64,000 nt of DNA from an uncultured Gammaproteobacteria bacterium (GCA_964592785.1 CAZQHU010000001.1:45687-109686); one strand, 5' to 3'. Numbered from the stretch's first letter, positions 11,642-61,682 are shown. Translations and numbers: made by a program. Notes: a model not told the origin generated them from the sequence alone.

Positions 11642-12053
11642 ATATACTATTGAGAGTCCGAAAAAATCATTGGCTGATTATGCCAACTCAAAAAGATGGT
11701 CCCTAAACAGGGTTGCGGTTACTTTAGAAGAAGAGTAAATTGCCTTATTTAAGCAAAATTTCTTGACTAACATAATGCATTTCCATTCTTTCCTAACGTT
11801 TTTTTCGGTTTCAATAGCTTTATTATTTAATGCCTTAAGTATAGCTGAAAACAGACTATTTGTCAAGATTTAAGATTTGCGAAGAGAAAAGGTTTATGGC
11901 TGTGGATAAATCCAATGTACATAAAAATTTATGTAAATTGGATCAAGGTGGTGAACGAAACGCAAATGCGACGTACATCACCATAGGTGGGCACATAAGC
12001 CCGCCGGAGTATATGATCTCCGGTTTCCCTCCTTGATCGTCGAACGATCTGGA

Positions 12054-12302
12054 TTACACCAGTGTCCAATTTCTGCCGTTGGTATTAATCTTGATCGTAG
12101 TTCTGGCTTTCTTCGGGTGGCGTTCGTCGGCGTTGACGATGACTACCAGGTTGTGGTCGATGACCACACCGAACCCGTCTCTGATGTCTCTGACGCAAGA
12201 GATCTTCCCTGTTCGTCCACTGTACTTGCCCCTCAGCATCAGGACGCGTGCTCTTCGAGCAACGAGTTCGTCATTGGTTTCTTTCAGTTGCTGTTGTTCC
12301 AT
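12054..12302 (-). CDS. Hypothetical 82-aa protein in a GC-rich island
   Basis: GGAGG ribosome-binding site 7 nt upstream of the ATG; promoter-like TTGACT-17-TATTTT overlapping the truB terminator; local GC far above the surrounding sequence. Confidence 0.4.
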   Translation of the reverse strand: MEQQQLKETNDELVARRARVLMLRGKYSGRTGKISCVRDIRDGFGVVIDHNLVVIVNADERHPKKARTTIKINTNGRNWTLV

Positions 12303-12329
12303 TTTAACCTCCAATTGAATAAACCAAAA

Positions 12330-12362
12330 CCCTGTGGTAAAAATACCACAGGGTTTTGGTTT
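12330..12362 (-). terminator. Intrinsic terminator of truB
   Basis: AAACCCTGTGGTATTTTTACCACAGGGTTT hairpin. Confidence 0.6.
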
Positions 12363-12370
12363 AGTCAATT

Positions 12371-13108
12371 TTACTTAGTGATAGTTTTGGCCTGGTTTAG
12401 ATCATATGATCCAATCGCTGTTCTTTTTAATTCTTCGCAATAAGCGCCACAGCCAAGTTTTTGGCCAATATCATTGGCAAGGGTGCGGATATAAGTTCCT
12501 GTTGAACAATTTACTTCAATTTTTAAGTCAGGATAGCTATATTCCAATAATTTTATATTATAAATCTCTATTTTTTGTTTTTTGCGTTTTATATTTTTTC
12601 CTTTTCTGGCCAGTTTATACAGTTTTTGGCCGTTTATTTTTTTAGCGGAGAACATGGGGGGGAGTTGTTTTTGTTTGCCGATGAACTTTTTTAAAACTTT
12701 TTCAATTACCCCCCTTGAAAAAGAGGGGCGAGGGGGGATATTGGCCAAGAATTTTGACAACATCCCCCTTATTCCCTCTTTTTTAAGTGGGAGAATATTT
12801 CCTGTCTTATCAAAAGTATCACTAACATATCCAAGTTTGATTGTTGCAATATAAGTTTTGGGAAGATTTTTAAATTCATCCAGTTTTCTGGTTGCTTCGC
12901 GGCCAATACCAACAATTAAAAGGCCGGTCGCAAAAGGATCTAGTGTTCCACTGTGACCTACCTTCGCCTTGCAGGCTTCGGTGGGCAAGCCATTTTTTTT
13001 TCTTTCCTGGTAAATTTGTTTTCTAATATAATTAACCACGTCAAAGCTGGTCCAACCTGCCGGCTTATTAATCAATAAAAAATTATGATATAATTCAGTC
13101 ATATGCAA
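12371..13108 (-). CDS. truB: tRNA pseudouridine(55) synthase TruB, with an in-frame GC-hairpin repeat insertion at about 12698-12790
   Basis: LLINKPAGWTSFDVV and GHSGTLDPFATGLL catalytic region; insertion translated as LPLKKEGIRGMLSKFLANIPPRPSF. Confidence 0.85.
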   Translation of the reverse strand: MHMTELYHNFLLINKPAGWTSFDVVNYIRKQIYQERKKNGLPTEACKAKVGHSGTLDPFATGLLIVGIGREATRKLDEFKNLPKTYIATIKLGYVSDTFDKTGNILPLKKEGIRGMLSKFLANIPPRPSFSRGVIEKVLKKFIGKQKQLPPMFSAKKINGQKLYKLARKGKNIKRKKQKIEIYNIKLLEYSYPDLKIEVNCSTGTYIRTLANDIGQKLGCGAYCEELKRTAIGSYDLNQAKTITK

Positions 13109-14065: not shown

Positions 14066-14202
14066 AAACACCCACCATGAAAGTGGGTGTTTTTAATATT
14101 TTCAATCTCCGGTTTGTACTTGTCACAAATATTTATGGCAAGTAGGTGTGCCGGAGAGTGAGGATATGTGATGCCGGCACATGCGTGGGTGAAGTTATCG
14201 GT

Positions 14203-14850
14203 CTAGACGAGGAGGATGAAGCTGTTGTCGTTCGATGGGTAGCCAGAGGAGTGTCTATAGGTTACCTCGTTGTCAGTAACCTTGAAGACATCAGTTGATG
14301 CTGGCATCTCGCGTTCCCTTCGAACAATACAAACTTCTTTGCCTGTGAGTTGTTTTCGATGTTCTCGGACGAACGCGATGACCTCTTGCAAGGTTGCTGA
14401 ACGTCTTCCCAGAACCTTGTAGACCACCTGTTCGATGGTTTCTTCGAATTTGCTCAGATTGCACATTGGCCCAAATCCAGCAAGAGGGAAAAGGAAAACT
14501 GGAAGGGCATAAGTGGTTGTCCTTTCACTGAAATTGAGGAAATGTGAGACAAGATGACCACTTTGCGTTCTTTCCGTGCATTTGAACAAACGATTGAACT
14601 CTTCTTCGTTTACGGCCTGGCCGTTCATGTTGAGTACGAAGCGTTCGCAAGTGACGCCGACCACCGACTTTCCAGCTGATGCGGGCAAGTCTTGGGCCCT
14701 GGTCAACACCAGTTTTCTCCTGATGATCATCAAGAGTCTGGACCAGTTGTCCAGGACCCATTGGATGACCATCTCCGCCTCGGGGTATTTCCCGGACGTG
14801 AGATCATGTAGAACTCCCCATCCATCAGGTCTGTCCTTTTTCGTTCCCAT
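14203..14850 (-). CDS. Hypothetical 215-aa protein, GC-rich island B (start placed at the ATG with an AAGGAG RBS; the six-frame ORF extends to 14952)
   Basis: Composition contrasts with flanks; AAGGAGAAcatcATG; no recognisable motifs. Confidence 0.4.
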   Translation of the reverse strand: MGTKKDRPDGWGVLHDLTSGKYPEAEMVIQWVLDNWSRLLMIIRRKLVLTRAQDLPASAGKSVVGVTCERFVLNMNGQAVNEEEFNRLFKCTERTQSGHLVSHFLNFSERTTTYALPVFLFPLAGFGPMCNLSKFEETIEQVVYKVLGRRSATLQEVIAFVREHRKQLTGKEVCIVRREREMPASTDVFKVTDNEVTYRHSSGYPSNDNSFILLV

Positions 14851-15187
14851 GATGTTCTCCTTTACCCATCTGGTAATGACGGTTTCAGCTACCGAGCTTT
14901 TGCTCTTGACCGAAGCCGATAAGCCAGACGAGCGCATGTGGGCTAGGACCAATTCCTAGCTCTAGATTTTATATACCATATATTGTTTATTTTGTAAAGC
15001 TAGTGCACCTATATCAATCATTGGGAGCAAACAATTTTTGATTAATTATTCATTATAAATTAAAAAATCCGCTTAAAACGGATTTTTTAATTTCAATTAT
15101 TTACAAATAATTTTGTAAACACTTGAGTCACCCCGGTCCTCCAGGTCCGAGTGCTCCTACAGTGTAGGAAAGGTGCAGGACAGTTGG

Positions 15188-15541
15188 TCACAACATGCCC
15201 CAATAGAAGAGTTTGGAGACAAGTGGAATATTGAAAACGGCGCCGATGATGGTTTCGACACTTCCTTCTGAGGGTGTCTTGTAGAAGACAAATGCAGGAA
15301 TGCCACAGATGCTGTGGGCCTTGGCAATTGTTGGGCAATTGTCCGCATTGAATTCCACAATCTTGAGTCGGTGGCCGAATTCTTCGGCTATATGGTTGAG
15401 ACGATCTATGGCAAGCCCACAGGGTTGGCACCAATCTGTCCAGAAGAAAACTAGCACTGGTATGGGCGATTTGGTCACTTCTTGTTCGAAGTTTGTCGTG
15501 GTCCCGTGCGTTACCTGCTCGTGAAATCTTGGCATTGCCAT
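15188..15541 (-). CDS. Thioredoxin (GC-rich, second copy; distinct from native trxA at 24035)
   Basis: WCQPCGLA active site in a thioredoxin-length protein; the overlapping ORF 15093..15617 is an artefact. Confidence 0.75.
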   Translation of the reverse strand: MAMPRFHEQVTHGTTTNFEQEVTKSPIPVLVFFWTDWCQPCGLAIDRLNHIAEEFGHRLKIVEFNADNCPTIAKAHSICGIPAFVFYKTPSEGSVETIIGAVFNIPLVSKLFYWGML

Positions 15542-15659
15542 TAGAGTCTCTCCTGCAGAAGTAATTGTTCAAACATCTTCCAATATGATTTTTATAATAA
15601 ATCTTATTTTTTGTCAATAGTTCATACTTGGCATTTTATTTTAACGTGTTATAATTAAA

Positions 15660-17867: not shown

Positions 17868-17933
17868 CTGTCATTCCTGCGAAGGCAGGAATCCAGATTT
17901 TTGATTAGATTCCCACCTTCCCGGGAATGACAA
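17868..17933. repeat. Inverted pair of GTCATTCCTGCGAAGGCAGGAATC-type repeats (family 5) forming a hairpin
   Basis: CTGTCATTCCTGCGAAGGCAGGAATC...GATTCCCACCTTCCCGGGAATGACA; further copies at 33784-33847, 34181-34245 and 44010-44076. Confidence 0.7.
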
Positions 17934-19341: not shown

Positions 19342-19378
19342 TCTTGCACATTTTTGATTTTTTGTATAATTTATCTAT

Positions 19379-19549: not shown

Positions 19550-19559
19550 TTTTAATAAT

Positions 19560-20165: not shown

Positions 20166-20316
20166 AAATATATAAATTTGGACAAAAATAAAAACCCCCG
20201 CCTTTCAGTTAACTTTCGAGGCGGGGTTTATTTTTGAGGTAGCCCCTAGGCGCGTGTTGAGGGCACGGCTTTGGGGCTTGGTTTGGAGGGCATAGAACCT
20301 CCGATTTTCCGACGCC

Positions 20317-20535
20317 TCACCTGCTGGCATGGCGTACGGGTAAAGAAAGAGCCTCGCGGTCGATCGCGATCGGTCGTCTGTCGATCCGAGAAGCGGCATA
20401 GAAGCCGTCTATGAGGACCGAGCCGTCCGGAGCGAAACCAACCACTTGGACGATACCATGCCCCTCACAATGGAACCAACGTCCCACTTGGGGTTCACGG
20501 TCATCGTCAACCAGAAATTCCTTACGTCCTTCCAT
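20317..20535 (-). CDS. Hypothetical 72-aa protein in GC-rich island C
   Basis: GGAGGTGAAAAATG ribosome-binding site; composition contrast with flanks. Confidence 0.4.
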   Translation of the reverse strand: MEGRKEFLVDDDREPQVGRWFHCEGHGIVQVVGFAPDGSVLIDGFYAASRIDRRPIAIDREALSLPVRHASR

Positions 20536-20653: not shown

Positions 20654-20682
20654 TTGACAATTTTTAAAAAATTAAGTAACAT
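20654..20682 (+). promoter_or_regulatory. Sigma70-like promoter TTGACA-N17-TAACAT
   Basis: Read directly; matches the promoter architecture at 26866 and 41985. Confidence 0.45.
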
Positions 20683-20689
20683 TTATTTG

Positions 20690-21107
20690 ACGTTGGTCCA
20701 GCGACGTTGCCTTTGGGGATAAGATCCTCACAACGTGTCCTGGAGTAAACCAACGAGTAGTCGAGGGGGCTAAGCCCCAATGTATAAGGATGGCCCACGT
20801 GCCATCCGAAGAACGGCGGTTCCTATACCGCCATGTACACTGGCGGGTTGGCTGCAAGATGCCAACCGCCACTCGCGGGCGCACGTCGCCCGGGTTCCCG
20901 GGGGCTGTGGTTACTTTGCCCCCACGCACTTCAGTGGCTTGCTACCTTTCGAGGCGCAGGCTTAGCTCTCCTGGATTTCCGGGACTGAAGTGACTGCTGA
21001 TGGTTCCCGTCGTGGTACTGTCCAAGGAGGGGGGAAGATTAGAGCAGATAATGTCTTCCCGCACCTCATACTTTAGACACCACCCAAAAGGGTGGTGTTT
21101 TTTTATT
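20690..21107 (+). ncRNA. Candidate structured noncoding RNA of about 415 nt, promoter to intrinsic terminator, GC-rich, class unknown
   Basis: Promoter at 20654-20682; terminator ACACCACCCAAAAGGGTGGTGTTTTTTT at the 3-prime end; multiple internal hairpins; only short ORFs in all frames. Confidence 0.35.
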
Positions 21108-26865: not shown

Positions 26866-26894
26866 TTGACATTTTTTTTGATAGTTGTAAGATA
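26866..26894 (+). promoter_or_regulatory. Sigma70-like promoter TTGACA-N16-TAAGAT
   Basis: Read directly; near-identical to the promoter at 41985-42012. Confidence 0.45.
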
Positions 26895-26923
26895 AAGTTA
26901 TCTCGTTGGCATGGAGGTGCCAG

Positions 26924-27070
26924 ATGGATTCGATCAGTCCTGGATGGGTGGTCATTGGCCTGGTGGGTCTGTTCATCTTCGGATTTCTCATCCGGAGGGC
27001 AGTGACAGTGCACCGCCACAACGCGCGCGTCTCGGATTCCGAGAAGAAGACGGAGGAGGCGACGTGCTGA
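26924..27070 (+). CDS. Small hydrophobic peptide (48 aa; single TM then a basic/acidic tail), GC-rich island D
   Basis: GGAGGtgccagATG ribosome-binding site; MDSISPGWVVIGLVGLFIFGFLIRRAV...; own promoter and terminator. Confidence 0.4.
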   Translation: MDSISPGWVVIGLVGLFIFGFLIRRAVTVHRHNARVSDSEKKTEEATC

Positions 27071-27147
27071 AGGTCGCCACACCCGAGTGCAGTCGGGTGA
27101 AGTTTCGTAGGAGTGGGCGCGTACTGCATAGCGCGCCCCTTCACAAC

Positions 27148-27186
27148 AAAAAACCACCTCGAATTTTCGGGGTGGGTTTATTTTAG
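27148..27186 (+). terminator. Intrinsic terminator after the small peptide gene
   Basis: AAAAAACCACCTCGAATTTTCGGGGTGGGTTTATTTT. Confidence 0.6.
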
Positions 27187-27458
27187 GGAAGTACAGAGGG
27201 TGTCACCAGACACACCCCCTGTACGAGAAAGGAACGGTTTTCCTCAATACGTTGGGTTCAAGGAACCCTGTCTTTGTCCACGGCACAAGAGCAAGTAACT
27301 GGAAATGGGGGTTGGGGCTCAAGCATCGTCGGCATGAGACGGGGTTGGAACAGGCACAAGGCACTGCGACGAACCACAGACGTATGGGCGGCGAGGAAAC
27401 TGGCAATCGTATTAGACCATGATTTTTCTAAAAAGTAAACTTATTTTGTGGATAAAAA

Positions 27459-27718
27459 ATCCCCGCGTCAAATGCGGGGTTTAAAAATGAGGCGTCCCGG
27501 GCGACGGAGCAAGGTGCCTCCGTCGCCCGGGGAAAGGAACACGTCAGTTCAGCATGAGGGCACTTACGTCCCCTTAGTTAAGGGCGGGGTCATCACACCT
27601 CGCGCCCGTAGCCACACTGGTCTTTTTCTTTTGGTTCACTCGTCGCTACTACAAAAGAGGTTGGGCAGGCGCAGAACGCGCCCTCAACCGGATCCAGTTT
27701 TGAACCGACTGAACTGAC
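27459..27718 (-). ncRNA. Candidate structured RNA of about 260 nt on the minus strand (12-bp terminal closing helix ACGUCAGUUCAG/CUGAACUGACGU, a large GC hairpin, and a terminator)
   Basis: Promoter-like TTTACA-N17-TTAAAT at 27725-27760 on the minus strand; terminator CCCCGCATTTGACGCGGGGATTTTTT. Confidence 0.3.
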
Positions 27719-41936: not shown

Positions 41937-42019
41937 TGTGTATTTATATAATATAAAACCGACCAAGTGGTCGGTTTTTTGTTCTTGACATTTTTTATGT
42001 TTATGTTAAGATTGTTTGG

Positions 42020-42283
42020 CTGATGAACCTTGCGTCACGTGTATGGATGGCCTGAGAGCCATAGCACTGATGTGAGTTTTGTTGGCTGGGGGCTGACAGC
42101 GGTCCGATACGGACTGAGTTTTCGACGAAAGTCGACGATTGTGGTCTCGGACCGCTGTCGCCCCTGTTTTGAACGGAGGCTAAGGGGGTGTGTTTTTCTG
42201 TATACACATCCCCCGCGTTCCAAATAAATAAATTTTGTTTATTTAGAATGAAAAATAATCCCGATATTATGTCGGGATTATTT
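42020..42283 (+). ncRNA. Candidate GC-rich structured RNA (promoter TTGACA-N16-TAAGAT at 41985-42012; long helix GGGGCTGACAGCGGTCCGA/TCGGACCGCTGTCGCCCC; terminator)
   Basis: Promoter nearly identical to that of island D; nested hairpins; terminator AATCCCGATATTATGTCGGGATTATTTTT. Confidence 0.3.
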
Positions 42284-42698
42284 TTATCTTTCTTCCTTTG
42301 TCTATGTGTTCAATTTTTATTTTTTTTACTTTCTTTCCTTTCAACAATCTACGCAATTTTTCTGGCCATTCAATAATACAGACCGTATCGGGCGCGCCGA
42401 TGTAGTCTTCGGCACCGATTTCAATTAGTTTTTCTTCATTTTCTAGTCGATATGTATCTATATGGACAAGACTTTTGACTTTAGAGACTTTAAGACTTTT
42501 GACTTCGTACACGTTCATGAGTGAAAAAGTGGGGGAGGTGATATTTTTTTTCACGCCAAAATATTCCGCTATGCCTTTGGTGAGGGTAGTTTTTCCAGCG
42601 CCTAGGTCACCTTCAAGTAATATAACATCACCGCCTTGGAAAGTGGTAGCTATTTTTTTGCCGAGATTGATTGTTTCTTTTTGATTTTTGGTTATCAT
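42267..42698 (-). CDS. tsaE: tRNA t6A biosynthesis protein TsaE (YjeE P-loop ATPase), with an in-frame KS-repeat insertion
   Basis: [15 protein letters not shown] Walker A; insertion translated as [13 protein letters not shown] at 42466-42510. Confidence 0.75.
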
Positions 42699-45631: not shown

Positions 45632-45910
45632 CTAGGCATCCAGGCGACCGGCATTGTCCAGGGAGAAGTAGAACCTCACATCGGTCAGGGTGAGGGGGGC
45701 GCTGGGATCCTCGGGGACTTCGTATTCGATGTAGAGAAGTCTTCCGCTGATCTTGGCCTCACAGAGGAACTGCGCCATTCCTCGGCCTTGGAATCGGCAG
45801 ACCCGTTGTGGGCCCACTTCGAAGGTGCAAAATCCTTCGCCGTTCGGCCCGGTGAGAGTGAGCAAGCTCACTCTTGCACTCTTGAACTGCATGGGCATCT
45901 TCCCTGGCAT
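45632..45910 (-). CDS. Hypothetical 92-aa protein in a GC-rich island
   Basis: GAGGAAACGAAATG ribosome-binding site; composition contrast with flanks. Confidence 0.4.
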   Translation of the reverse strand: MPGKMPMQFKSARVSLLTLTGPNGEGFCTFEVGPQRVCRFQGRGMAQFLCEAKISGRLLYIEYEVPEDPSAPLTLTDVRFYFSLDNAGRLDA

Positions 45911-48566: not shown

Positions 48567-48803
48567 ATGGTTCCAGATGCCGATGTTTACCAAAGGTTCC
48601 AGATCATTCTGGAGAGCAGTCTCACGGGAAAGGTTTACGAGAAGTGGGCGGCGACAAGCTACCTGCCAATCGTGGCTGGAGCAGTGTTGCGACGGGTGGC
48701 TTCTTTTCCTATGGAGGAGGAATCTAACCGCGCAGTGGTGGAGGCTGCACGCAAGTGTCTTTCAGAAGGCGCTGGCAATGAGGTGTCGCCATGCGTTGTC
48801 TGA
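48567..48803 (+). CDS. Hypothetical 78-aa protein, GC-rich island F
   Basis: AAAGGAGGGTGGCATG ribosome-binding site. Confidence 0.4.
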   Translation: MVPDADVYQRFQIILESSLTGKVYEKWAATSYLPIVAGAVLRRVASFPMEEESNRAVVEAARKCLSEGAGNEVSPCVV

Positions 48804-49184: not shown

Positions 49185-49198
49185 AAGGAGGAATGACG

Positions 49199-49558
49199 AT
49201 GTTTAGACTGCCTAAAGGTGTTTGTTTCTTCTTTATGAAAGATCCTGCTGATCGGGGGGTTCACCATCACCGCGGTAGAGGTCATAGGAGGACTGAAGAT
49301 CTGCCGGTCAAAGACCACGAACTTGGTCTAGGGTTTGAAGCTTGGGCGAGAAAGAAGGTGAGAGTTCCCACTGAACAGGAGACTCGTACCTACACCTATC
49401 ATCCGCTCATCACCGAACACTGCTTGGCTTGTGGTTGTCCACCAGATCGTCTGGGTGGTGGCCTTAACACCATTCCTTTCCCTGTTTTCACTTTGAAAGT
49501 GGACAGAGAAGGTGTGGTACGCCATGTTTGTGGTAAGGAGGTTTTCCGAATGAAGTAA
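49199..49558 (+). CDS. Hypothetical 119-aa Cys/His-rich protein, GC-rich island F
   Basis: AAAGGAGGAATGACGATG ribosome-binding site; HCLACGC...HVCGKE possible metal-binding site. Confidence 0.4.
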   Translation: MFRLPKGVCFFFMKDPADRGVHHHRGRGHRRTEDLPVKDHELGLGFEAWARKKVRVPTEQETRTYTYHPLITEHCLACGCPPDRLGGGLNTIPFPVFTLKVDREGVVRHVCGKEVFRMK

Positions 49559-53802: not shown

Positions 53803-53803
53803 A

Positions 53804-54037
53804 TTACTTCACCCAAAAATAATATATGGGTACGAATTGTCCAATACCTGTGGTTCTTACATCAATACACTGGGTATTAGGAGGACATATTTGTTTAGAG
53901 TTTGTTTCAATAATTTTGCAATAGGATGGTGGTTTGGTGGACATCGTGACTTCCAAACACTTTTCAGAGATGATGAAATTTATTGTAGTAAGAATACCAA
54001 CTATAATTATTATTAATAGAATTATTTTTTTTGACAT
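53804..54037 (-). CDS. Small membrane-anchored Cys-containing protein
   Basis: N-terminal hydrophobic anchor; paralogue-like to the next gene. Confidence 0.35.
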   Translation of the reverse strand: MSKKIILLIIIIVGILTTINFIISEKCLEVTMSTKPPSYCKIIETNSKQICPPNTQCIDVRTTGIGQFVPIYYFWVK

Positions 54038-54064
54038 AAATTTTAATTTAATAAGTAGAATATA

Positions 54065-54412
54065 CTATCCTAAGCAAATTGCGTTGTCCTTTGAAGTACA
54101 AAATTCATATGATTCAGCTTGTGGATCCCAACCATTTTTGCATTGCATCCAAGTACAAGCATTTTGTTTTTCACACGATTCTTTTGTTTTTAGTTTGTGA
54201 CAGGTTTCATATTCTTTACGAAGTTGTTGTTGTTTGATAATACATTTTGTAAATTCTTCGCCCTTGAATTGGCTACACATTTGTTTATCCGAATTTTGTG
54301 TATTAATTTTTTCTATTTCGTAATGATAAACTAATTGATAAATTAAAACTGACGCGCAAACAACAATTAATATAAGTATCCAATATGGTAGTTTGAGGGA
54401 GAGTATTTTCAT
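54065..54412 (-). CDS. Small membrane-anchored Cys-rich protein
   Basis: Signal anchor plus 8 Cys. Confidence 0.4.
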   Translation of the reverse strand: MKILSLKLPYWILILIVVCASVLIYQLVYHYEIEKINTQNSDKQMCSQFKGEEFTKCIIKQQQLRKEYETCHKLKTKESCEKQNACTWMQCKNGWDPQAESYEFCTSKDNAICLG

Positions 54413-54418
54413 ATTAGT

Positions 54419-55540
54419 TTAATACAGCGCTATCCAAAGTCCTAAGAGCACCATCGCTCCATGGGCGATCCAAAAACGCATAACAGTTTTTTCTTCTGTC
54501 CACCCTAGGAGTTCAAAATGATGATGCAGTGGGGCCATCTTGAAAATTCTTCGTCCCCAAGTATAGCGACCAAAAATTTGAATAATTACAGAAACCAATT
54601 CTACATAAAAAATAAAACCAAAGAAGGGGAGTAGGAGCATTTTATTTATAACAATAGCATTTATTGCCAATAAAGCTCCCAAACCAAGTGAACCAACATC
54701 ACCCATTTGAAAACGAGCTGGTTTGACATTGAAATAAGTGTAAGTAATCAATGCTCCAGAAGCAGTGGCATTTAATAGAGTAATTTCGTGGTAACCAGTA
54801 AGCCAGCTAAGAATAGTCAAAGTGGAAAAAGTAATAATAAGCGAACCACCAGCTAGTCCGTCCATGCCATCGGCTACATTTACGGCATTGGCAGTAAACA
54901 TGACAAAGAAAATAATAATTGGCATGATCCACCAGCCAATATCTACTAGGCCATCAAAAGGAATAAAAATTTCCCGCCAGCTTTCTCCCAGTTTAAAATA
55001 GATCCAATAAGCAGTAATGGCTCCAGCTGCAAATTGTAAAAGCAATTTTTCATGAACATGTACGCCTCTTCCTGGATGAGAACCGAGTGATAGAGCCAGA
55101 CGTTTAAAAATAGACCAAGGCAAAGTAATAATTAACCAGAGACGATATCTCCAGTCAGCATGCACCCGAATAAGAGTAAGAATTTGTTTGATTTTTCTAT
55201 TTCTTCTTTCATGTCCATAAATATGCATCACATCATCAATGCCACCCAAGAGTGCAGCGAGTAACATTACACCGATTGGCACCCAGGTAAAGCTTCGTTC
55301 CCAGTTGAAGAAATAAGTAATAATAGCGACAGTGATAATAACTAAAAGTCCACCCATGATTGGTGTGCCAGTTTTTTGGGTGATACCCAAGGTAGCATCA
55401 TAATCTCCCCGTCTGGTAAGCTTGAAATGATAAAGAAATTTAATCAAAACTGGAGCCCAAACAAAAGCCAAAACAGCCGAAAAAATACCGAAACTAATAG
55501 CGGTTTTGAGTTCTGGCAATGTTCCCAAAGGGATATTCAT
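54419..55540 (-). CDS. mraY: Phospho-N-acetylmuramoyl-pentapeptide transferase MraY
   Basis: NAVNVADGMDGLAGG motif, polytopic. Confidence 0.85.
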   Translation of the reverse strand: MNIPLGTLPELKTAISFGIFSAVLAFVWAPVLIKFLYHFKLTRRGDYDATLGITQKTGTPIMGGLLVIITVAIITYFFNWERSFTWVPIGVMLLAALLGGIDDVMHIYGHERRNRKIKQILTLIRVHADWRYRLWLIITLPWSIFKRLALSLGSHPGRGVHVHEKLLLQFAAGAITAYWIYFKLGESWREIFIPFDGLVDIGWWIMPIIIFFVMFTANAVNVADGMDGLAGGSLIITFSTLTILSWLTGYHEITLLNATASGALITYTYFNVKPARFQMGDVGSLGLGALLAINAIVINKMLLLPFFGFIFYVELVSVIIQIFGRYTWGRRIFKMAPLHHHFELLGWTEEKTVMRFWIAHGAMVLLGLWIALY

Positions 55541-55716
55541 AAGTCTAGATTATTTTATCAACAATTGACTAAAAAATCAAGTTTTGAAAATGCTTGAAAA
55601 ATTTTTGGATTTGTGTTTAAATAAATTGAAAGCTTGAATAAAAGAGCTGATGAGGTTGGGATTTACTCGTCCTAGTAGAGTTGATTTGGTCAGCTCTTTC
55701 ACAACTGGAGGCAATC

Positions 55717-56871
55717 ATGTCCATTGGTGGAGTGGTCATCACTACGGGCGTAGCCTGTGCCAAACTGGATCTGCTCAAGGTCATGATCGAGATGGTTCTC
55801 CAGGCAGGTCTTCAGCCGGTGTTGCGGATCAATACCGCGCATCACGGCAGTCCGTTGTTCCAGCAGATACTGGACGTGACCTGTGAAGCTAGGTATGCGT
55901 ATCCGGAAGGTGAAGTCCTGCTTCAGATGGACTTGCCTGGTCCGAAAATCCGCGCGCGGATTGCAAGCGGGGTCAAGGAAAGGGAACTCAAGCCTGGTGA
56001 TGAGATCTTCTTCGGCCATGAAGGCTGTCTACCGCAGTTCTCGTTCAACAATGGCCGTGAACTTCTCTGCCCCAATCTGCCCGAAGTGCTCTTTGGGCTG
56101 GAGGCGGGGATGGACATTGTCATGGCCGACGGTGCATTCCGTTTCCAGGTGAAGGAAGTGGTGGAGCAAAATCGTCTATTCCTGCTCGTGGTCTTGAGGG
56201 CCAAGGAAGTGTTCAAGGATTACCGTGGTGTTTCCTTCCCGAAACGGAGAGGTATCGGTGGTATCTGCTGCCCCACTCAGGAAGACCTAGACCTGGTACC
56301 GCTGGTAGTTTCTTCGAGTGCGAACATCGTTGCCCAATCCTTCACGCTGAACGGTGATTCCATTCGCACTCTGCGTTCGCAGATCGAGAAGTGCGGTGGA
56401 AGGAACGTGCAGGTGATGGCTAAGCCGGAAAACCGCGATGCCTTGTACAACTGGAGGAGCATCTGCGAAGCGAGCGATTCACTGATGGTTCCTCGGGGTG
56501 ACCTGGCAGTGGAAGTCTCCCTTCTGGATCTGCCTTTCATCCAGCAGATACTGGTCATTTGGGGACGTTCCTACAACAAGCCGGTCACCATTGGTACGGG
56601 GCTCTTGCGTAGCATGCTCGAAGACGACGAGTATGCACGTTCGGAAGCCACGGATGTCACGGTGGCGATTCAGCAGCTCTGGGGGACCCCAGGCTTCGTG
56701 ATGCTGACGAACGAAACCTGCGAGGGTAAACACCCGGCCGAGACCGTGGCAGTGATCCTGGCGACGGTCCAGAGGAACAGGAAGTATTTGGAGATCCTTC
56801 ACCATCTGGTTCCGACTGACTTGGACAGGTTCGAGGAGGAATATCGGGGGCTTTTGGACAGTTGCACTTGA
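55717..56871 (+). CDS. Divergent pyruvate-kinase-like TIM-barrel protein lacking the C-terminal domain, GC-rich island G
   Basis: GGAGGcaatcATG ribosome-binding site; DLPGPKIR, MAKPENRDAL, MVPRGDLAVEV and KPVTIGTGLLRSM parallel the PK motifs DTKGPEIR, KIENQEG, MVARGDLG and KPVICATQMLESM. Confidence 0.6.
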   Translation: MSIGGVVITTGVACAKLDLLKVMIEMVLQAGLQPVLRINTAHHGSPLFQQILDVTCEARYAYPEGEVLLQMDLPGPKIRARIASGVKERELKPGDEIFFGHEGCLPQFSFNNGRELLCPNLPEVLFGLEAGMDIVMADGAFRFQVKEVVEQNRLFLLVVLRAKEVFKDYRGVSFPKRRGIGGICCPTQEDLDLVPLVVSSSANIVAQSFTLNGDSIRTLRSQIEKCGGRNVQVMAKPENRDALYNWRSICEASDSLMVPRGDLAVEVSLLDLPFIQQILVIWGRSYNKPVTIGTGLLRSMLEDDEYARSEATDVTVAIQQLWGTPGFVMLTNETCEGKHPAETVAVILATVQRNRKYLEILHHLVPTDLDRFEEEYRGLLDSCT

Positions 56872-56940
56872 TCTCCCTTGGGAGGTGGAGGGAATCGTGG
56901 TCTGGTTGATTAGTGCGATAAGTAGAAAGGAGGTGTGATC

Positions 56941-57279
56941 ATGATGCCTGAACTCGTCAGAACCTTTGGAGGACATCAGTTTCCGCTCTCCATTTACATG
57001 GGAGAGAGGAAGGTGGTGGTCCAGGTACCAGAAGAAGGAGAACTCAAGACCATCGAGCGTGGTTCTGGCAATGGCAGGAAGGTCATCCTCTACCCGCTGA
57101 CCATGGTCGATGGAGTGAATCACCGTTTCGTGTTCAATCACGAAAATGGTGTTCCGATTTCGGGCTACATCGAGGAAGCCAAGGGACACCGTCTCAAGCC
57201 GGGAGTGAAATTCACCTTTTCGGTGATCACGAGCGGTGGTCGGTGCCCGGTCCAGGCTCGAGTGGAACTGCAGTCATAG
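56941..57279 (+). CDS. Hypothetical 112-aa protein, GC-rich island G
   Basis: AAAGGAGGTGTGATCATG ribosome-binding site. Confidence 0.4.
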   Translation: MMPELVRTFGGHQFPLSIYMGERKVVVQVPEEGELKTIERGSGNGRKVILYPLTMVDGVNHRFVFNHENGVPISGYIEEAKGHRLKPGVKFTFSVITSGGRCPVQARVELQS

Positions 57280-57324
57280 TCCTGGGGGCTTGACTGACTG
57301 GCCGGCTTGTGTTAGGATAGTTTT

Positions 57325-57600
57325 GGCTAACTTCGCGTGAAGGGACCGCACGAATGCTCTGCTACGGGCGCGGTTGCGCGAATTTTGGCTGGCCCACAGG
57401 GGCCGGGTGGTGGGTCGTTTGGCACGACCCCCCAGGTTGGACACCGTTGCAAGATACGGCGACCATGGCCTTTCGGCCCACCACCCAACCCTGTCCACAA
57501 GGAGGACGGGGGTGTATTCTGCACCCCCCAAGTTCCAAACCAATAAACATTTGTTGATTGGGAATAACAAAAAATCGCTTTAAAGCGATTTTTTGTTTTA
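57325..57600 (+). ncRNA. Candidate GC-rich structured RNA (promoter TTGACT-N17-TAGGAT at 57290-57318; terminator AAAAAATCGCTTTAAAGCGATTTTTTGTTTT)
   Basis: Long-range pairing GGCCGGGTGGTGGG / CCCACCACCCAACC; many overlapping short ORFs on both strands, typical of non-coding GC-rich sequence. Confidence 0.3.
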
Positions 57601-58365
57601 TATTTTTAATCTTTTTATTACAAATTCTTTGGCTTTTTTCGCATACTCTTGCATTTGTGGTTCGGACCAAGTTTGTTCTAATAAATTTTTGTTGGGGTTG
57701 GTAATTGTAATTGTTTCTTGTCGGACGCCGTGGTTGTATTGTCCGTCGGTAGGGTATTGGAAGGAGTGAATATAGTTCAGAGTTCCTAGTTCAGAGTTCA
57801 CAGACTCTACTAGTAAAACATGGTTGTAATCTTGTTTTAGTCCTGCACCCATAATAATGATCATATCACCCGGTTGAATTTCTGATAATTTAATTTCAAA
57901 ACTATTTACTTTGTGATGGAAAGTTCCCACGCCAGTATTTTCAATCGGACGAAGTTTGACCAAAAATTTTCTGAGAGGATTTTTGAACCAAGGTCTTTTC
58001 AAAACCTTATGTAAACTGCCTTTGCCACGAGCCTGCATTTCAGCGTCTAGTATGTGATAAACCAGTCCCGAACAATCAATACCTAGATTATGGTTGATTA
58101 AAAATTTTTTTAATTCTTCATTATTCAGTTTGTTTAAATCAACTTTTTCTCGGAGTGAAAAAATAGTTGCTTCTTCTACAATATCTTCAGGGCTACCTTT
58201 GCCGATCATGGCGCGTAAACCTCCGCGAAGTCGAGCACGACGATTATTAAAATAAGGACAAGAAATTTGTTTGCCAGGGAAGGGAAGTTGGAGATATTTT
58301 TGAATAACTTGCAGGGCTTGAGGAGATAGACTATTCATAATTTTTAATTTGAAATTTTTAAACAA
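57598..58365 (-). CDS. NlpC/P60-family cysteine peptidase-like protein
   Basis: GIDCSGLVYHIL catalytic Cys context and a downstream His. Confidence 0.55.
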   Translation of the reverse strand: MFKNFKLKIMNSLSPQALQVIQKYLQLPFPGKQISCPYFNNRRARLRGGLRAMIGKGSPEDIVEEATIFSLREKVDLNKLNNEELKKFLINHNLGIDCSGLVYHILDAEMQARGKGSLHKVLKRPWFKNPLRKFLVKLRPIENTGVGTFHHKVNSFEIKLSEIQPGDMIIIMGAGLKQDYNHVLLVESVNSELGTLNYIHSFQYPTDGQYNHGVRQETITITNPNKNLLEQTWSEPQMQEYAKKAKEFVIKRLKI

Positions 58366-58372
58366 TTTTTAA

Positions 58373-59782
58373 TTATTTAATTTTCAATAAATTTACAATT
58401 TTATTACCAATTATACTAAATTCATTATGTTTTTTCATTATTCCAGTTTTGCTTTGAATGCGAATCAAATCCGAATTTAATTTTGTGTTGTTATACTGGA
58501 TGGTATTAAAATTATTTTTTTTGAGTTTTTCAATAATCTTATAATTATTTAATTTTTTAATCATTTGCTCATCGTTCATTCTCTGTATTATTTGTGCCCC
58601 GTCTTGGATTTTGATTAATGTCTGATTTTCTAAATTCATGTTTAACAAAGCTAGTAAATGCGCTTCAAAAGTTGTCATTCCGAGCGAAGTCGAGGAATCC
58701 CTTTTACATTGTTTAAGGGATCCCTCCACTCGTTTACACTCGGTCGGGATGACAGACCGTTGTAATTGTGATTCGTAGGTAGTGGAGGCCGGTTGTCGGC
58801 AATTGATTTCCAACAAATACAATTTGCCAGTCTTCTCGTGCATTACTATATCGATCCCAAATAAACCGCGCCAACCAGCTTTTTTGAGCCTTAGACCAAC
58901 ATCAGTGGCAATTTTTTTATATTGTGCAATTTGTTTTTTATTTAAAATTTTATGAGGCAATGCCCAATCATTTCCAATAGTAGAAAAAGGCAGATCAGTA
59001 AAAGGCTTGAGGCCGGTAATTTGGTAATTGATATTACCAACCATTATTTCAGAATTTGCAACTACATTATTGTTGGTAAAAAGTGGACCAGGAATATATT
59101 CAGCGATTCGTACTTCACGTTCAGGAAATTTTTGTTGCAGAGTTTGTAGTTGTTTTTTGGATTCAATTAGAGTAGTACCACTACCAGTGTGGGATCTATT
59201 AAATTGCAGAATAAATGGCCCGACTCCGCTTCGTTGCGCCAGGGTAAGTTTACCCCAGGCAATTTCTTTACACTTCAAAACTTTATATTTTGGTAAATAT
59301 TTTTTTAATGGTCCGAGCCAAGTAATTTGCGAAATTTTTTCTTCTACCTCATTGGAAATTCTAGCTGGAGGATTTAGAAGTTTCCAATTATTTTCAGCAC
59401 AAGTTTTTTCAATTTGTAAGGTGTTTTTGAATACCAAAATCCCCCCCGGCCCCCCTTTACAAAGGGGGGAAGTGTCCAATTTCCCCCTTAGAAAAGGGGG
59501 ATTAAGGGGGATATTGGCAATATTATTAATAAACTTCTTTACTTGTTTATTCTGTAGTAGCTCCCAAGTATCCAGAATCTTTTTTTCTTTGATAAGTAAG
59601 ACATTTTTGTGTTTTTGATAAGACTTGGCAAAGTCAGAAAAATTTGAGATAATAAAATAACCTTTGGTATTAACAGGTAGTCCTAGAGCGCGCTCAAGAT
59701 CACGCGTAACGTAGATTATGGGTTGTTTGGTTAGGTCAAGCATAACGAGGGTAATTATAATAAAATTAAGCAAAAAAATCAA
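58373..59782 (-). CDS. ATP-grasp domain protein with two in-frame repeat insertions (58674-58755 family 1; 59438-59520 GC-hairpin family)
   Basis: LFGIDIVMHEKTGKLYLLEINCRQPAST C-terminal ATP-grasp signature. Confidence 0.6.
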   Translation of the reverse strand: MIFLLNFIIITLVMLDLTKQPIIYVTRDLERALGLPVNTKGYFIISNFSDFAKSYQKHKNVLLIKEKKILDTWELLQNKQVKKFINNIANIPLNPPFLRGKLDTSPLCKGGPGGILVFKNTLQIEKTCAENNWKLLNPPARISNEVEEKISQITWLGPLKKYLPKYKVLKCKEIAWGKLTLAQRSGVGPFILQFNRSHTGSGTTLIESKKQLQTLQQKFPEREVRIAEYIPGPLFTNNNVVANSEIMVGNINYQITGLKPFTDLPFSTIGNDWALPHKILNKKQIAQYKKIATDVGLRLKKAGWRGLFGIDIVMHEKTGKLYLLEINCRQPASTTYESQLQRSVIPTECKRVEGSLKQCKRDSSTSLGMTTFEAHLLALLNMNLENQTLIKIQDGAQIIQRMNDEQMIKKLNNYKIIEKLKKNNFNTIQYNNTKLNSDLIRIQSKTGIMKKHNEFSIIGNKIVNLLKIK

Positions 59783-59784
59783 TT

Positions 59785-60753
59785 ATGCAAGAATATTATC
59801 AGCAGTTAAAAGAATTTGGCCATGTTCGTCTCAATGAACCATTATCCAAACACACAACTTTTAAAATTGGTGGACCAGCTGATTTTTTTATTGAAGTAAA
59901 TGAAGTTGCTAAATTAACTAAGTTATTAAATTTTTTGAATAGTGAGGGGATAAGCTGGTTTGTTCTAGGTGGTGGAAGTAATATTTTATTTAAAGACGAA
60001 AATTTTGAAGGAGTGGTAATAAAAATTAAGACTACAGACCACAGACTAACTCTCGGCCTGAGCTCGGATCGAAAGCAGACTATGGACACAATTATAGCAG
60101 ACAGTGGAGTGTTGTTGTCACAAATAGTAAATTTGGCAGTACAAAATAATTTATCAGGTATGGAGTGGGGGGTGGGAATACCGGGTACAGTCGGCGGAGC
60201 GGTACGTGGTAACGCCGGTGCCATGGGCTATGATACTTCTCGGGTAGTGGAAAAAGTAGAAGTTTGGCGCGATGGTGAAGTTTTGATTTTGAATAATAAT
60301 GAATGCGGTTTTTTTTATCGTGGTAGTGATTTTAAGAAAAATGGCGGAGTGATTTTACGCGCCTGGTTCAAGCTTGTGCCCGGGGAGAAACAGTCAATCG
60401 TGAATGAAGTGGGGCGTTTTTTGCAACAAAGACAAGGACGCTATCCGACTTTTCCTTCAGCCGGAAGTTTTTTTCAGAATATAGATATAGATAAATGGCC
60501 GGGAGATACCAAAAATTTACCAGAAATTTTTGTAGAGCGTAAAAAAATTCCAGTTGGTTGGCTAGTGGAGCAATGCAATTTGAAAGGTTATACTGTCGGT
60601 GGAGCCAAGGTTTCTGATGAGCATGGTAATTTTGTAGTCAATTTTAAAGAGGCTACCCAAGCAGAGATTTTGGCTGTGGTTGAGACAGTTCAAGAAAAAG
60701 TGTATAATAAATTTGGCGTAGAATTAAAACCTGAAGTAGAAATTATAAAATAA
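59785..60753 (+). CDS. murB: UDP-N-acetylenolpyruvoylglucosamine reductase MurB
   Basis: FKIGGPADFFIEV FAD-binding N-terminus, GGGSNILF. Confidence 0.85.
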   Translation: MQEYYQQLKEFGHVRLNEPLSKHTTFKIGGPADFFIEVNEVAKLTKLLNFLNSEGISWFVLGGGSNILFKDENFEGVVIKIKTTDHRLTLGLSSDRKQTMDTIIADSGVLLSQIVNLAVQNNLSGMEWGVGIPGTVGGAVRGNAGAMGYDTSRVVEKVEVWRDGEVLILNNNECGFFYRGSDFKKNGGVILRAWFKLVPGEKQSIVNEVGRFLQQRQGRYPTFPSAGSFFQNIDIDKWPGDTKNLPEIFVERKKIPVGWLVEQCNLKGYTVGGAKVSDEHGNFVVNFKEATQAEILAVVETVQEKVYNKFGVELKPEVEIIK

Positions 60754-60760
60754 TAAAAAT

Positions 60761-61105
60761 ATGCAAATAAAAATTAAAGGTACTGGCATCGACCTTACTG
60801 AGCCAATTAAAAATTATGTCATAGAAAAAATAGAAAGTTTGGAAAAATTTTTTGATAATATTCAATCGGCCGATGTGGATGTGGGTATGCAGTCGCATCA
60901 TCATCTCAAAGGCAAAGTTTATTATGCTGAAGTAAACTTATCAGTACCAGGTAAGTTGATAAGAGTAGTTAAAGAATCTGAAGATTTGTATAAAGCTATA
61001 GACAAAGTCAAAGATCATCTAAAAGTTGAACTGGAGAAGATGAAAGAAAAAAAACGTGCTCGAGATAAAAAAGTATTACGGGAAAACAAACAATATCAGG
61101 AATAA
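60761..61105 (+). CDS. hpf: Ribosome hibernation-promoting factor (HPF/RaiA)
   Basis: MQIKIKGTGIDLTEPIKNYVIEKIESLEKFFDNI, 114 aa, followed by a strong terminator. Confidence 0.8.
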   Translation: MQIKIKGTGIDLTEPIKNYVIEKIESLEKFFDNIQSADVDVGMQSHHHLKGKVYYAEVNLSVPGKLIRVVKESEDLYKAIDKVKDHLKVELEKMKEKKRARDKKVLRENKQYQE

Positions 61106-61275
61106 AAAATATCCGCCCCGCGTATTGCGGGGCGGATATTTTTAATTTTAGAACTGTCCGATATTATTTTAAATTTCTAGATTTAGAAATTTAAAGGGGG
61201 GATCGGACAGTTCTTTTGGGGAGTGCAGTCCCAAAGAACGACTGATCCCACGAAGCTGAAGTGGCGACCGGTCTT

Positions 61276-61527
61276 TTAACCGGTCGTGCAGTGCTTGCGT
61301 CCGTCGGGGGTCTCGGTGACCGTGACCCCGGGTTCGCCGACGTTCTGGCGACGATCGAGGGCTTCCTGGGTTCTCGGTGGTTCCCGGTGCTTGTCCTGGC
61401 CGCACTTGAAACAGAAGCGGCCCTCGGATTCGTGTCCGCAGTTAGGACACTTCTGGATCGGCGCCGGCCGAAGCCAGGACGGAGTCCGGTCGGGTCCGAT
61501 GTTGGCAGGTCGGGGTCGGAGTGGCAT
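61276..61527 (-). CDS. Small C4 zinc-ribbon protein, GC-rich island H
   Basis: CAGGAGGTTCACATG ribosome-binding site; CPNCGHESEGRFCFKCG. Confidence 0.45.
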   Translation of the reverse strand: MPLRPRPANIGPDRTPSWLRPAPIQKCPNCGHESEGRFCFKCGQDKHREPPRTQEALDRRQNVGEPGVTVTETPDGRKHCTTG

Positions 61528-61682
61528 GTGAACCTCCTGGTGTTTGCCTGCCTTATTTGTGGCAGGGAAAGAGAAATTGGCTCCATTTAACAGTATTTTC
61601 TAAACTTTGTCAAGGGTAGACAAAAGAGACAAATAGTGATACAATGCAGTTCATGGTTCAATAATTATAAAATAGTTATTTT

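Follow-up and report, generated by a model that had tools for sequence, protein, structure and literature searches.

The GC-rich islands of the window (the whole 64,000-nucleotide stretch of DNA analyzed here) probably represent ~16 independent moron-like accessory transcription units that occupy nine intergenic hot spots, fall into two classes, and form part of the flexible genome, with a presumed translation mechanism. In each unit, a GC-rich body would be preceded by a sigma-70 promoter of the host type and followed by an intrinsic terminator. The first class would comprise mostly small, mostly orphan protein genes that differ from the host in codon dialect and have a strong Shine-Dalgarno (SD) site, and the second would comprise GC-rich structured small RNAs, including the paralogues I5 and I8c, a new pair, as well as a 3' module that recurs in I4b and in an RNA of another species.

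The host chromosome (“Ca. Magasanikbacteria,” CPR, ultra-small) is AT-rich, with a background GC of 0.38. The nine intergenic loci (11990-12330, 14200-15545, 20200-21100, 26830-27720, 42010-42210, 45560-45950, 48530-49600, 55650-57560, and 61150-61620) have a GC of 0.46 to 0.56 as a whole, peaking at 0.60 in windows of 400 nt, and carry units of 49 to 60% GC. This agrees with the initial annotation, with the sole correction that 14200-15545 contains two separate units (I2a and I2b) and 26830-27720 contains three (I4a, I4b, and I4c). The remaining GC-rich patches are tRNAs (6036-6111 and 9257-9551) or fall within host genes. Units measure only 0.3 to 2 kb (single genes or RNAs) and comprise 11 protein genes, mostly orphans, and five ORF-free structured RNAs (Table 1). 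GC3 of the protein genes is 0.43 to 0.76, versus 0.30 for the host, and their codon dialect differs from that of 37 to 43 host genes. Open reading frames overlap on both strands within islands. Neighboring genes are housekeeping genes, and the flanks include murB, secA, infB, and leuS; ComEC and a pilus ATPase are also encoded near islands.

Table 1. Units of the GC-rich islands, with positions counted from the first letter of the window
Unit	Position	Strand	Content	Fold z (interval)
I1	12054..12302	-	82-aa orphan ORF, SD GGAGG, GC3 0.63; unit about 11960-12368
I1 -35 element	12368-12340	-	TTGACT
I2a	14203..14850	-	215-aa complete orphan, SD AAGGAG, GC3 0.56; terminator 14095-14063	-5.7 (mRNA)
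I2b	15188..15541	-	second thioredoxin, WCQPC, GC3 0.55; promoter 15617-15588, terminator 15057-15093
I3a	20317..20535	-	72-aa orphan ORF, SD AAGGAGG
I3b	20654..21100	+	TTGACA-N17-TAACAT promoter, ORF-free RNA ~390 nt, terminator 21075-21100	-5 to -6 (20690-21075)
I4a	26866..27175	+	TTGACA-N16-TAAGAT promoter, 48-aa single-TM protein (26924-27070); bidirectional terminator 27154-27175
I4b	27176..27415	-	structured RNA, hairpin-C / UUCCCUAAAAUAAA 3' module	-2.7 (27183-27415)
I4c	27461..27715	-	structured RNA, 10-bp terminal stem closing, terminator 27479-27461	-5.1 (27485-27715)
I5	41985..42285	+	TTGACA-N16-TAAGAT promoter, RNA ~220 nt, own terminator 42251-42285	-6.8 to -8.9 (42012-42230)
I6	45632..45910	-	92-aa orphan ORF, SD GAGGAAA, GC3 0.72; terminator 45505-45475
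I7a	48567..48803	+	78-aa orphan ORF, SD AAGGAGGG
I7c	49199..49558	+	119-aa Cys/His-rich orphan ORF, SD AAGGAGG; short SD-led ORF upstream (about 49110-49180)
I8a	55717..56871	+	pyruvate-kinase-like A+B barrel without C-terminal domain, 384 aa
I8b	56941..57279	+	112-aa orphan ORF, SD AAGGAGG; 99% conserved between strains	-3.9 (mRNA)
I8c	57290..57597	+	TTGACT-N17-TAGGAT promoter, RNA ~230 nt, terminator 57566-57597	-3.3 (57318-57550)
I9	61276..61527	-	83-aa zinc-ribbon-like ORF, SD AGGAGG, GC3 0.74; TTGACA-N17-TTAAAT upstream (read by eye)

At the level of sequence patterns, a sigma-70 promoter of the host type and an intrinsic terminator bracket the units, making the islands discrete modules between housekeeping genes, with their own transcription signals and a foreign-looking composition. 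The nearly identical promoters previously noticed at 20654, 26866, and 41985 are real and are joined by a fourth at 57290, but host genes use the same consensus, TTGACA-N17-TAnnAT (9027, 21178, and 41368), and the shared promoter is therefore not island specific. The T-rich spacer is also found in the IF-2 promoter at 21178.

Among the predicted cargo, the second thioredoxin (thioredoxin fold family with CxxC, Pfam 8.4e-16) and the pyruvate kinase (PK) barrel (PF00224, 6e-41) hold up, the zinc ribbon of I9 is a weak match, and no family was assigned to the other island proteins. I2a matched only itself among 1.84 billion representatives, and the homology search for I2b yielded no candidate or near relative. 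Homology of I1 with a 77-aa ORF of the related locus L005 was ruled out (E = 0.12).

Translation initiation signals separate island genes from host genes. A GGAGG-like site lies 5 to 10 nt upstream of the start in all 11 island ORFs, and the strong SD sites proposed initially, including AAGGAG before 14850 and GAGGAAA before 45910, were verified. Complementarity to the anti-SD of at least 5 nt was found for 10 of 11 island ORFs versus none of 42 host genes (Fisher p = 5.6e-10). Core genes show no SD enrichment in the window or in 27 related loci, and those of the clade lack SD whatever the genome GC, the GC-richer relatives being likewise non-SD. Translation of the clade's core genes would dispense with SD, their mRNAs being AT-rich, unstructured, or leaderless, while GC-rich mRNAs, which fold, would be expressed only with a strong SD, so that GC-rich cassettes with GGAGG would be those retained. 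The cassettes are presumably SD dependent, and a mechanism presumably keeps them GC-rich, candidates being selection at the mRNA level or constant exchange with an extrachromosomal pool that is GC-richer and so far unsampled. Approximately half of Parcubacteria lack an anti-SD (Tsurumaki et al. 2022, PMC9297842). The literature is ambiguous on the anti-SD status of this lineage, and no 16S rRNA 3' end was present in the window or among the fetched related loci; if the 16S rRNA of this lineage lacked an anti-SD, the argument for SD dependence would fail.

An artifact, whether chimeric assembly joins or ORFs that are open by chance within GC-rich RNA genes, is an extremely improbable source of the islands. 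GC-rich DNA has few stop codons, the overlapping frames on both island strands fit such an artifact, as RNA, I2a and I8b have unusually strong folds, and AlphaFold (AF2, single sequence) gave neither protein a confident fold (pLDDT of 43 and 36, respectively). However, correctly spaced GGAGG in 11 of 11 ORFs is not chance, the RNA units carry no SD-start pairs, PK and thioredoxin match Pfam, and pN is well below pS in the PK gene. In addition, Logan contigs from independent samples (SRR8925817, SRR8925793, SRR10276719-21, and SRR32129872) reproduce island-flank junctions at 99 to 100%. Independent assemblies (four to five samples) cover I3, I4a, I6, I7, I8, and I9 but not I1 and I2, for which exact-protein look-ups of the flanks in other assemblies returned nothing. 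The islands thus survive the check for chimeric joins that had been suggested with their description, the junctions of I3 to I9 being reproduced, and also that for AT-rich orthologues, as orthologous loci hold GC-rich rather than AT-rich versions.

The islands belong to the flexible genome of the species, and units come and go between near-identical strains. Among strains that are ~99% identical, the whole I3b unit (20613 to about 21176) is missing from contig L108, I4b and I4c are missing from L106, and the whole I5 unit (41979-42277) is missing from L086, in each case with intact flanks; I3a persists in L108 and I4a in L106. No target-site duplications, terminal inverted repeats, or direct repeats were found at the three sequenced junctions. 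Flexibility extends beyond the GC-rich units, as two AT-rich accessory indels were also seen. Elevated divergence of the islands in general was ruled out by mismatch densities of 1.0% in islands versus 1.07% in host sequence. The island units are absent from the sister species, and GC-rich, SD-led islets are present in relatives. At I7 the hot spot is conserved, the locus being syntenic with an islet of another species (L098), and the islet of L002 and L005 is syntenic and orthologous across two species with core genes about 72 to 76% identical in nucleotide sequence, with GC-richness and SD both kept.

The PK-like gene I8a, which lies inside a murein gene cluster adjoining cell envelope genes, provides a second comparison. 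Its product aligns with residues 8-341 of 2e28 and retains AKxEN, RGDL, T-x-x-L, and ETxxG, whereas the C-terminal alpha/beta regulatory domain (PF02887), present in almost all listed homologues, is absent. Two alleles of the gene occur, sharing ~60% identity and bounded by sharp breakpoints and flanks that are 99 to 100% identical, and its sole near relative is the allele in the same species. Catalytic motifs and SD are conserved in both (pS 0.76 versus pN 0.29), and GC-richness is kept although synonymous sites are saturated. DGR-type hypermutation was rejected, substitutions of all types being spread over the whole ORF. The divergent alleles are exchanged, and the simplest route would be uptake of DNA, for which the nearby ComEC and pilus ATPase genes may be relevant, followed by homologous recombination in the conserved flanks.

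These comparisons bear on the proposal that the islands are recent, not yet ameliorated horizontal acquisitions from GC-richer, SD-using donors, such as a host, a partner organism, or phages and plasmids of either, with SD and codons as donor fossils. Deviant GC3 and codon dialect, an SD foreign to this clade, strain variability, absence from sister species, and the presence of ComEC are all compatible with such transfer, and the best named PK matches are Betaproteobacteria, though at just 29 to 33% identity. Nevertheless, it is possible rather than likely: both saturated PK alleles and the species-level islet retain SD, AT-rich host-consensus promoters and terminators fall inside the indel boundaries, and searches of 5.8 to 15 billion proteins returned no donor-like homologues of I2a, PK, or thioredoxin. 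GC-richness also persists between species, over divergences that saturate core synonymous sites, and between the similarly saturated PK alleles, which speaks against a simple transfer that is recent and un-ameliorated. High GC in the coding cassettes would be a long-lived property of a gene pool and not the fading mark of recent import. That persistence is read from one cross-species islet and one allele pair, which may also reflect separate acquisitions at one locus. Neither a donor nor an extrachromosomal pool was found, and the distinct gene pool is therefore defined by composition alone.

The initial annotation had considered foreign modules such as phage morons, genes from a high-GC host or partner, or one dispersed element family. 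Discrete promoter-body-terminator units, foreign-looking composition, and gain or loss of whole units were borne out; phage origin, donor, and recency were not. In addition to the housekeeping context, PADLOC gave no defense match, viral-contig scans, which covered the PK-like protein and I2a, turned up no relatives, and PHROGs gave only generic or weak matches (a thioredoxin domain at 1.6e-4, the unknown-function phrog_25828 for the PK-like protein at 2.3e-26, and weak matches for the zinc-ribbon protein), with nothing for eight of ten island proteins. A high-GC donor is also disfavored by the non-SD genes of GC-rich clade relatives. A single mobile element family (MITE, IS, or integron-cassette-like) copied around the chromosome is largely refuted and very improbable, even though the promoter-body-terminator layout recurs, whole units are gained or lost, and I5 and I8c are paralogous, with a 3' module in common with I4b. 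The other islands share no sequence similarity, full-length likeness is limited to I5 and I8c, the promoter follows the host consensus, the junctions lack the duplications and inverted repeats of transposition, and no Pfam domains of transposases, integrases, or reverse transcriptases occur in the 64 kb.

The structured-RNA candidates noted initially are supported, as all five units fold with z scores of -2.7 to -6.8, versus an average of -0.4 ± 0.8 for host control sequences. They may be GC-rich because structural RNAs in an AT-rich genome need to be, as the tRNAs here do. In Rfam, only three tRNAs passed the gathering threshold and nothing credible was found in islands at E<=1; identity with hammerhead, RNase P, tmRNA, 6S, or SRP RNA is unsupported by Rfam or ARAGORN. 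I5 and I8c have a common architecture and sequence (z = 6.9). A coding reading of this pair (62- to 67-aa Cys/Trp-rich ORFs) is less likely, given the lack of a proper SD-start pair; strain differences within these ORFs are non-synonymous only, and both long hairpins are kept despite different sequence. The 3' hairpin/tail module is common to I4b, I5/I8c, and the L098 RNA, in which two pairs are compensatory, although the set comprises four sequences and 56 of 500 shuffles matched this covariation. Scanning viral contigs with this motif gave two chance matches inside GC-rich phage coding sequence.

RNA units and small SD-led ORFs occur together at three loci of the window and in L098, which might indicate local regulatory or addiction modules, with RNAs acting on neighboring SD-led small-protein mRNAs as type I toxin-antitoxin systems or SD-blocking sRNAs (candidate pairings are I4a and I4b/I4c, I8b and I8c, and the ORF and RNA of L098). 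I4a is a type-I-toxin-like TM peptide with clustered amino acid changes in L106, the strain lacking I4b/I4c, and the RNAs carry either CCUC(C) motifs (I4b and L098) or exposed GGAGG (I5, I8c, and I3b). However, I5 stands alone, I4a and I3a outlive their RNA partners, the RNAs are not antisense to ORFs, and energies of RNA-TIR duplexes are no better than those of composition-matched shuffles, making such modules quite improbable.

A broader possibility, distinctly unlikely on present evidence, is that SD-independent, AT-rich Patescibacteria keep a second native class of GC-rich, strictly SD-dependent cassettes and companion sRNAs as a private translational channel, with GC-richness kept by selection or a dedicated exchange pool and not by recency. 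The cassettes would encode small proteins, often Cys-rich or membrane proteins, and the sRNAs would expose SD-like GGAGG or anti-SD-like CCUCC. With SD use limited to the accessory class, such RNAs, or any shift in anti-SD availability, could turn that entire set on or off separately from the core proteome.

CPR/Patescibacteria, which have minimal genomes and unusual ribosomes, make up a large share of bacterial diversity, most of it uncultured. Under the preferred reading of independent moron-like units, the accessory genome of one CPR lineage is recognizable in the bare sequence by its coupled GC-rich and strong-SD signatures, which stand out from an AT-rich core lacking SD and offer a simple handle for strain-variable small proteins and new sRNAs and raise the question of how an SD-ignoring ribosome treats SD-led mRNAs. 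The compositional signature outlasts speciation here, and compositional islands should therefore not automatically be taken as recent foreign DNA. The RNA pair with its 3' module and the hypervariable, C-terminally truncated PK-like gene are targets for follow-up.

The units resemble several known systems in part. A phage moron, following Hendrix and Juhala, is said to be an insertion of one or a few genes of deviant composition that separates genes adjacent in relatives and carries a sigma-70 promoter and a factor-independent terminator of its own. The island units similarly have their own promoter and terminator patterns and a composition unlike that of their neighbors, and I5, I4b+I4c, and I3b sit between genes adjacent in L086, L106, and L108. 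They differ in lying among housekeeping genes and not in a phage or prophage, in that a third are non-coding RNAs, and in a shift towards GC that is coupled to a switch in translation initiation signal. Classical genomic islands or integrative elements fit poorly, with no integrase or transposase in the window and no repeats at the three junctions, as do integron gene cassettes, which are promoterless, end in attC, and lie near intI, judging from the units' own promoters and the lack of integrase domains. I4a, hydrophobic, SD led, and beside convergent structured sRNAs sharing its bidirectional terminator, recalls type I toxin-antitoxin systems, but complementarity does not exceed chance (duplex z of -2.8 to +2.3 versus shuffles) and the gene survives without the RNAs in L106.

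GC content has reportedly been used to screen for ncRNA genes in AT-rich genomes, an approach attributed to Klein, Misulovin, and Eddy (2002). The ORF-free islands, which are GC-rich, bounded by promoter and terminator, and strongly structured like tRNAs, resemble the targets of such screens, but they match no Rfam family and are strain variable instead of housekeeping. Pangenome studies distinguish flexible genomic islands and islets of “additive” and “replacement” types. Strain-level presence or absence at fixed intergenic hot spots, and the PK-like locus, with deeply divergent alleles between identical flanks adjoining cell envelope genes, match these islets, whereas the very small size of the units, the lack of a tRNA, integrase, or direct-repeat signature, and the uniform compositional and SD dichotomy do not. 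Finally, core genes without SD enrichment are a feature shared with the non-SD or leaderless translation of Parcubacteria, to which the window adds a minority class of strongly SD-led genes not described there (Tsurumaki et al. 2022, PMC9297842).

The nine GC-rich intergenic islands (I1 to I9) reach a GC content of 0.47 to 0.60 in a sliding profile, against about 0.35 around them and 0.38 for the window overall, and the peaks fall where the initial annotation had placed them. The remaining GC-rich patches are tRNA genes or richer portions of host genes. On reading, the islands split into about 16 separate units, 11 of which are ORFs with a GGAGG-like sequence 5 to 10 nucleotides 5' of the start codon. 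Complementarity of at least 5 nucleotides to the anti-Shine-Dalgarno (anti-SD) sequence was found for 10 of these 11 ORFs and for none of 42 host genes (Fisher P = 5.6e-10). The island feature is genuine and statistically strong. Mis-set start codons do not explain the missing host SD sites, since host ORF lengths agree with independent gene calls on Logan contigs. Host genes have AT-rich upstream regions, frequently with TATAAT a few bases 5' of the ATG; at several operon-first genes, including the three tabulated, the distance is merely 5 to 10 nucleotides. This spacing suggests that core genes may produce leaderless or very-short-leader mRNAs. According to Tsurumaki et al. 2022 (PMC9297842), roughly half of Parcubacteria have lost the anti-SD. 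Among the long core genes of 27 related loci, SD sites occur at background frequency irrespective of genome GC (31 to 55%), so that GC-rich relatives are no obvious donors.

Codon use differs between the two gene sets. Third-position GC (GC3) is 0.43 to 0.76 in island ORFs versus 0.30 ± 0.04 in host genes; from host to island, the leucine codon TTA falls from 27% to 1%, CTG plus CTC rises from 13% to 64%, and the lysine codon AAA falls from 80% to 32%. The Cys content of island ORFs is three times that of host genes. Two tRNAs encoded in the window, tRNA-Pro(CGG) and tRNA-Glu(CUC), decode only G-ending codons, which are rare in host genes and preferred in island genes (CCG, 15% versus 33%; GAG, 22% versus 37%).

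The window belongs to a bacterial chromosome and encodes an IF-2 that is 67 to 73% identical to that of “Candidatus Magasanikbacteria” MAGs, and the genes between islands are housekeeping genes (RNase Y, TruB, transketolase, IF-2, GDH, LeuRS, ComEC, SHMT, a mur cluster, SecA, and PBP). Anaerobic-digester and biogas metagenomes are the source of near-identical contigs. Host proteins identical between strains were used to retrieve colinear contigs from further samples, and in them I3, I4a, I6, I7, I8, and I9 recur at 99 to 100% identity, including junctions, with the same mismatch density in islands as in host DNA. Other units are strain-variable. The promoter, body, and terminator of I5 are replaced in contig L086 by 19 bp between the terminators of the neighbors, L106 has an 88-bp AT-rich spacer instead of I4b and I4c, and L108 has 10 bp instead of I3b; inspection of these indels showed neither target duplications nor inverted repeats. 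Two AT-rich accessory segments are likewise strain-variable: a NUDIX gene found only in L086, between SHMT and EamA, and a pair of 201- and 56-amino-acid ORFs absent from L107 and L108. Among host segments, the one diverging most between strains (75% identity or unalignable versus L106) is an insert in the 1,196-amino-acid LeuRS, where NUDIX and α/β-hydrolase domains lie C-terminal to the editing domain. Dispersed REP-like palindromic repeats of about 65 to 75 nucleotides are 78 to 89% alike; some copies vary among strains, one of them within the Mur-ligase ORF, and related motifs lie in the spacers of the tRNA operon and immediately 5' of the start codon in several host genes. One gene in a glycosyltransferase cluster has a bacterial product with a Pfam match (3.8e-12) to the DOT1 histone-methyltransferase family.

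The three near-identical promoters reported in the initial annotation are all present and are joined by a fourth, but the pattern is host consensus rather than island specific: TTGACA-N16-18-TAnnAT also serves the tRNA operon, the IF-2 operon (12/12 match, T-rich spacer as well), and other host genes. Intrinsic terminators were called by a prediction tool at the ends of most units.

Coordinates of features (window positions unless a contig is named)
Feature	Position	Strand
I2a, 215-aa ORF	14203-14850	-
I4a, 48-aa membrane peptide	26924-27070; L106 5700-5846	
I8b, 112-aa ORF	56941-57279	+
PK-like/112-aa/RNA island	55560-57600	
Peptidoglycan gene cluster	51377-60753	
Fourth promoter	57290	
tRNA operon promoter	9027	
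IF-2 operon promoter	21178	
TATAAT near ATG	464; 13103; 15660	
tRNA-Pro(CGG)	6036-6111	
tRNA-Glu(CUC)	9257-9329	
NUDIX gene	L086 2962-3465 (window 43949-43958)	
201-aa + 56-aa ORF pair	19337-20226	
LeuRS	28660-32250	
LeuRS insert	~29436-30414	
ComEC (DUF4131 + Competence)	32723-34216	
PilB/PilT-type ATPase	6210-7244	
DOT1-family protein	2158-2745	
REP-like repeats	17870-17932; 33774-33836; 34175-34251; 36984-37080; 44002-44078	
REP-like, also listed/related motifs	9060-9470; 51310-51418; 51726-51820	
L098 islet	L098 1003-1640	-

Pfam matches indicate that the pyruvate kinase (PK)-like product (6e-41) and the thioredoxin (8e-16) are genuine proteins; no family was matched by the remaining island ORFs. 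The sole match of I2a among 1.84 billion representative proteins is itself, a single relative of the PK-like protein exceeds 33% identity, a homology search gave no near relative of the thioredoxin, and PADLOC, PHROGs, and viral-contig scans returned nothing useful for the islands. Most island ORFs fold as ordinary mRNA; the exceptions, I2a and I8b, have unusually stable RNA (z = -5.7 and -3.9, respectively) and may act as dual-function RNAs or as strongly structured mRNAs. The membrane peptide I4a carries about 15 clustered substitutions in L106, giving seven amino acid changes within and after the TM helix, in a block otherwise 99.4% identical; this is also the strain without the neighboring RNAs I4b and I4c.

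The PK-like gene stands apart from the other units. Its flanks (the 5' leader with SD, the 112-amino-acid ORF, and the RNA I8c) are 98 to 100% identical in three samples, whereas the ORF itself is only about 60% identical between alleles, with breakpoints at its own start codon and the next SD. Hypermutation was considered and rejected: synonymous divergence is saturated (pS, 0.76; pN, 0.29) and both variants retain the PK catalytic motifs, indicating two old, functional alleles. The island lies within a peptidoglycan gene cluster (Mur ligase, FemAB-like, MraY-like GT4, ATP-grasp, and MurB), and a tie to the use of PEP by MurA is conceivable. ComEC and a PilB/PilT-type ATPase, DNA-uptake machinery, are encoded in the window and could supply recombination-based cassette exchange.

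Five segments without an SD-start pair have fold z scores of -2.7 to -6.8 against dinucleotide shuffles, versus -0.4 ± 0.8 for 24 host pieces; none matched an Rfam family. Full-length alignment of I5 and I8c (z = 6.9) identifies them as paralogues. Their common layout starts with a TTGAC-N16/17 promoter and a 5' GUUU(U)GG able to pair with a 3' CCAAAY, continues with a hairpin of about 67 nucleotides, one of about 80 nucleotides with a perfect 13-bp helix but unrelated sequences, a single-stranded GGAGG, and a GGGGGUGU...ACACCCCC hairpin, and ends with a GUUCCAAA-AAUAAA tail ahead of the terminator. I4b, although its body differs, ends in this hairpin and tail as well. When the 3' module was searched for with a covariance model, an RNA in another species (L098) was also detected, with two U-A to C-G compensatory changes in the hairpin and a tail nearly identical to that of I4b. 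Across the four sequences 100% of cells are paired, yet 56 of 500 shuffles equal this, and the covariation is suggestive only. The GC-richness of the RNA units would follow, as in tRNAs, from a need for stable structure. That the RNAs might regulate SD-led genes is an attractive idea in view of the GGAGG or CCUCC motifs and the co-location; duplex tests gave it no support.

None of the window island sequences was found in 18 related loci; comparable islets do occur in relatives. In L005 and L002, a TTGAC-promoted, SD-led islet (GC, 0.59 to 0.68; GC3, 0.62 to 0.83) lies between truB and a methyltransferase gene; the small Cys-motif proteins that it encodes in the two are homologues (36% identity, E = 6e-8), and the surrounding core genes are about 72 to 76% identical at the DNA level. 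SD-led Zn-ribbon, TM, or Cys-rich ORFs are also present in L095 and L098. The L098 islet, at a locus syntenic with I7, comprises an SD-led 65-amino-acid Cys-rich ORF followed by the RNA, which is structured, TTGACA promoted, C-rich, and about 190 nucleotides long, and carries CCUCC motifs.

This architecture and population behavior are consistent with accessory cassettes that resemble morons and occupy intergenic hot spots. They support the earlier proposal of repeated modules and rule out its alternative of a single dispersed element family, as well as prophage and assembly error. Simple recent foreign DNA is a weakened explanation: very large databases yield no donor, AT-rich host-consensus control elements lie within the indel boundaries of units, and GC-richness and SD are kept both in the orthologous islet across species and in alleles with saturated synonymous divergence. 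A long-lived accessory gene pool of distinct composition is therefore favored. Unstructured leaders are in general linked to SD-independent initiation, and in such a pool a strong SD might permit translation of GC-rich, foldable mRNA where core mRNAs start without one. Moron-like flexible islets are a known kind of feature, of which the window islands are a variant with two points that look new: GC-richness is coupled to SD use within a genome otherwise without SD, and accessory structured RNAs form a set that has a common 3' module.
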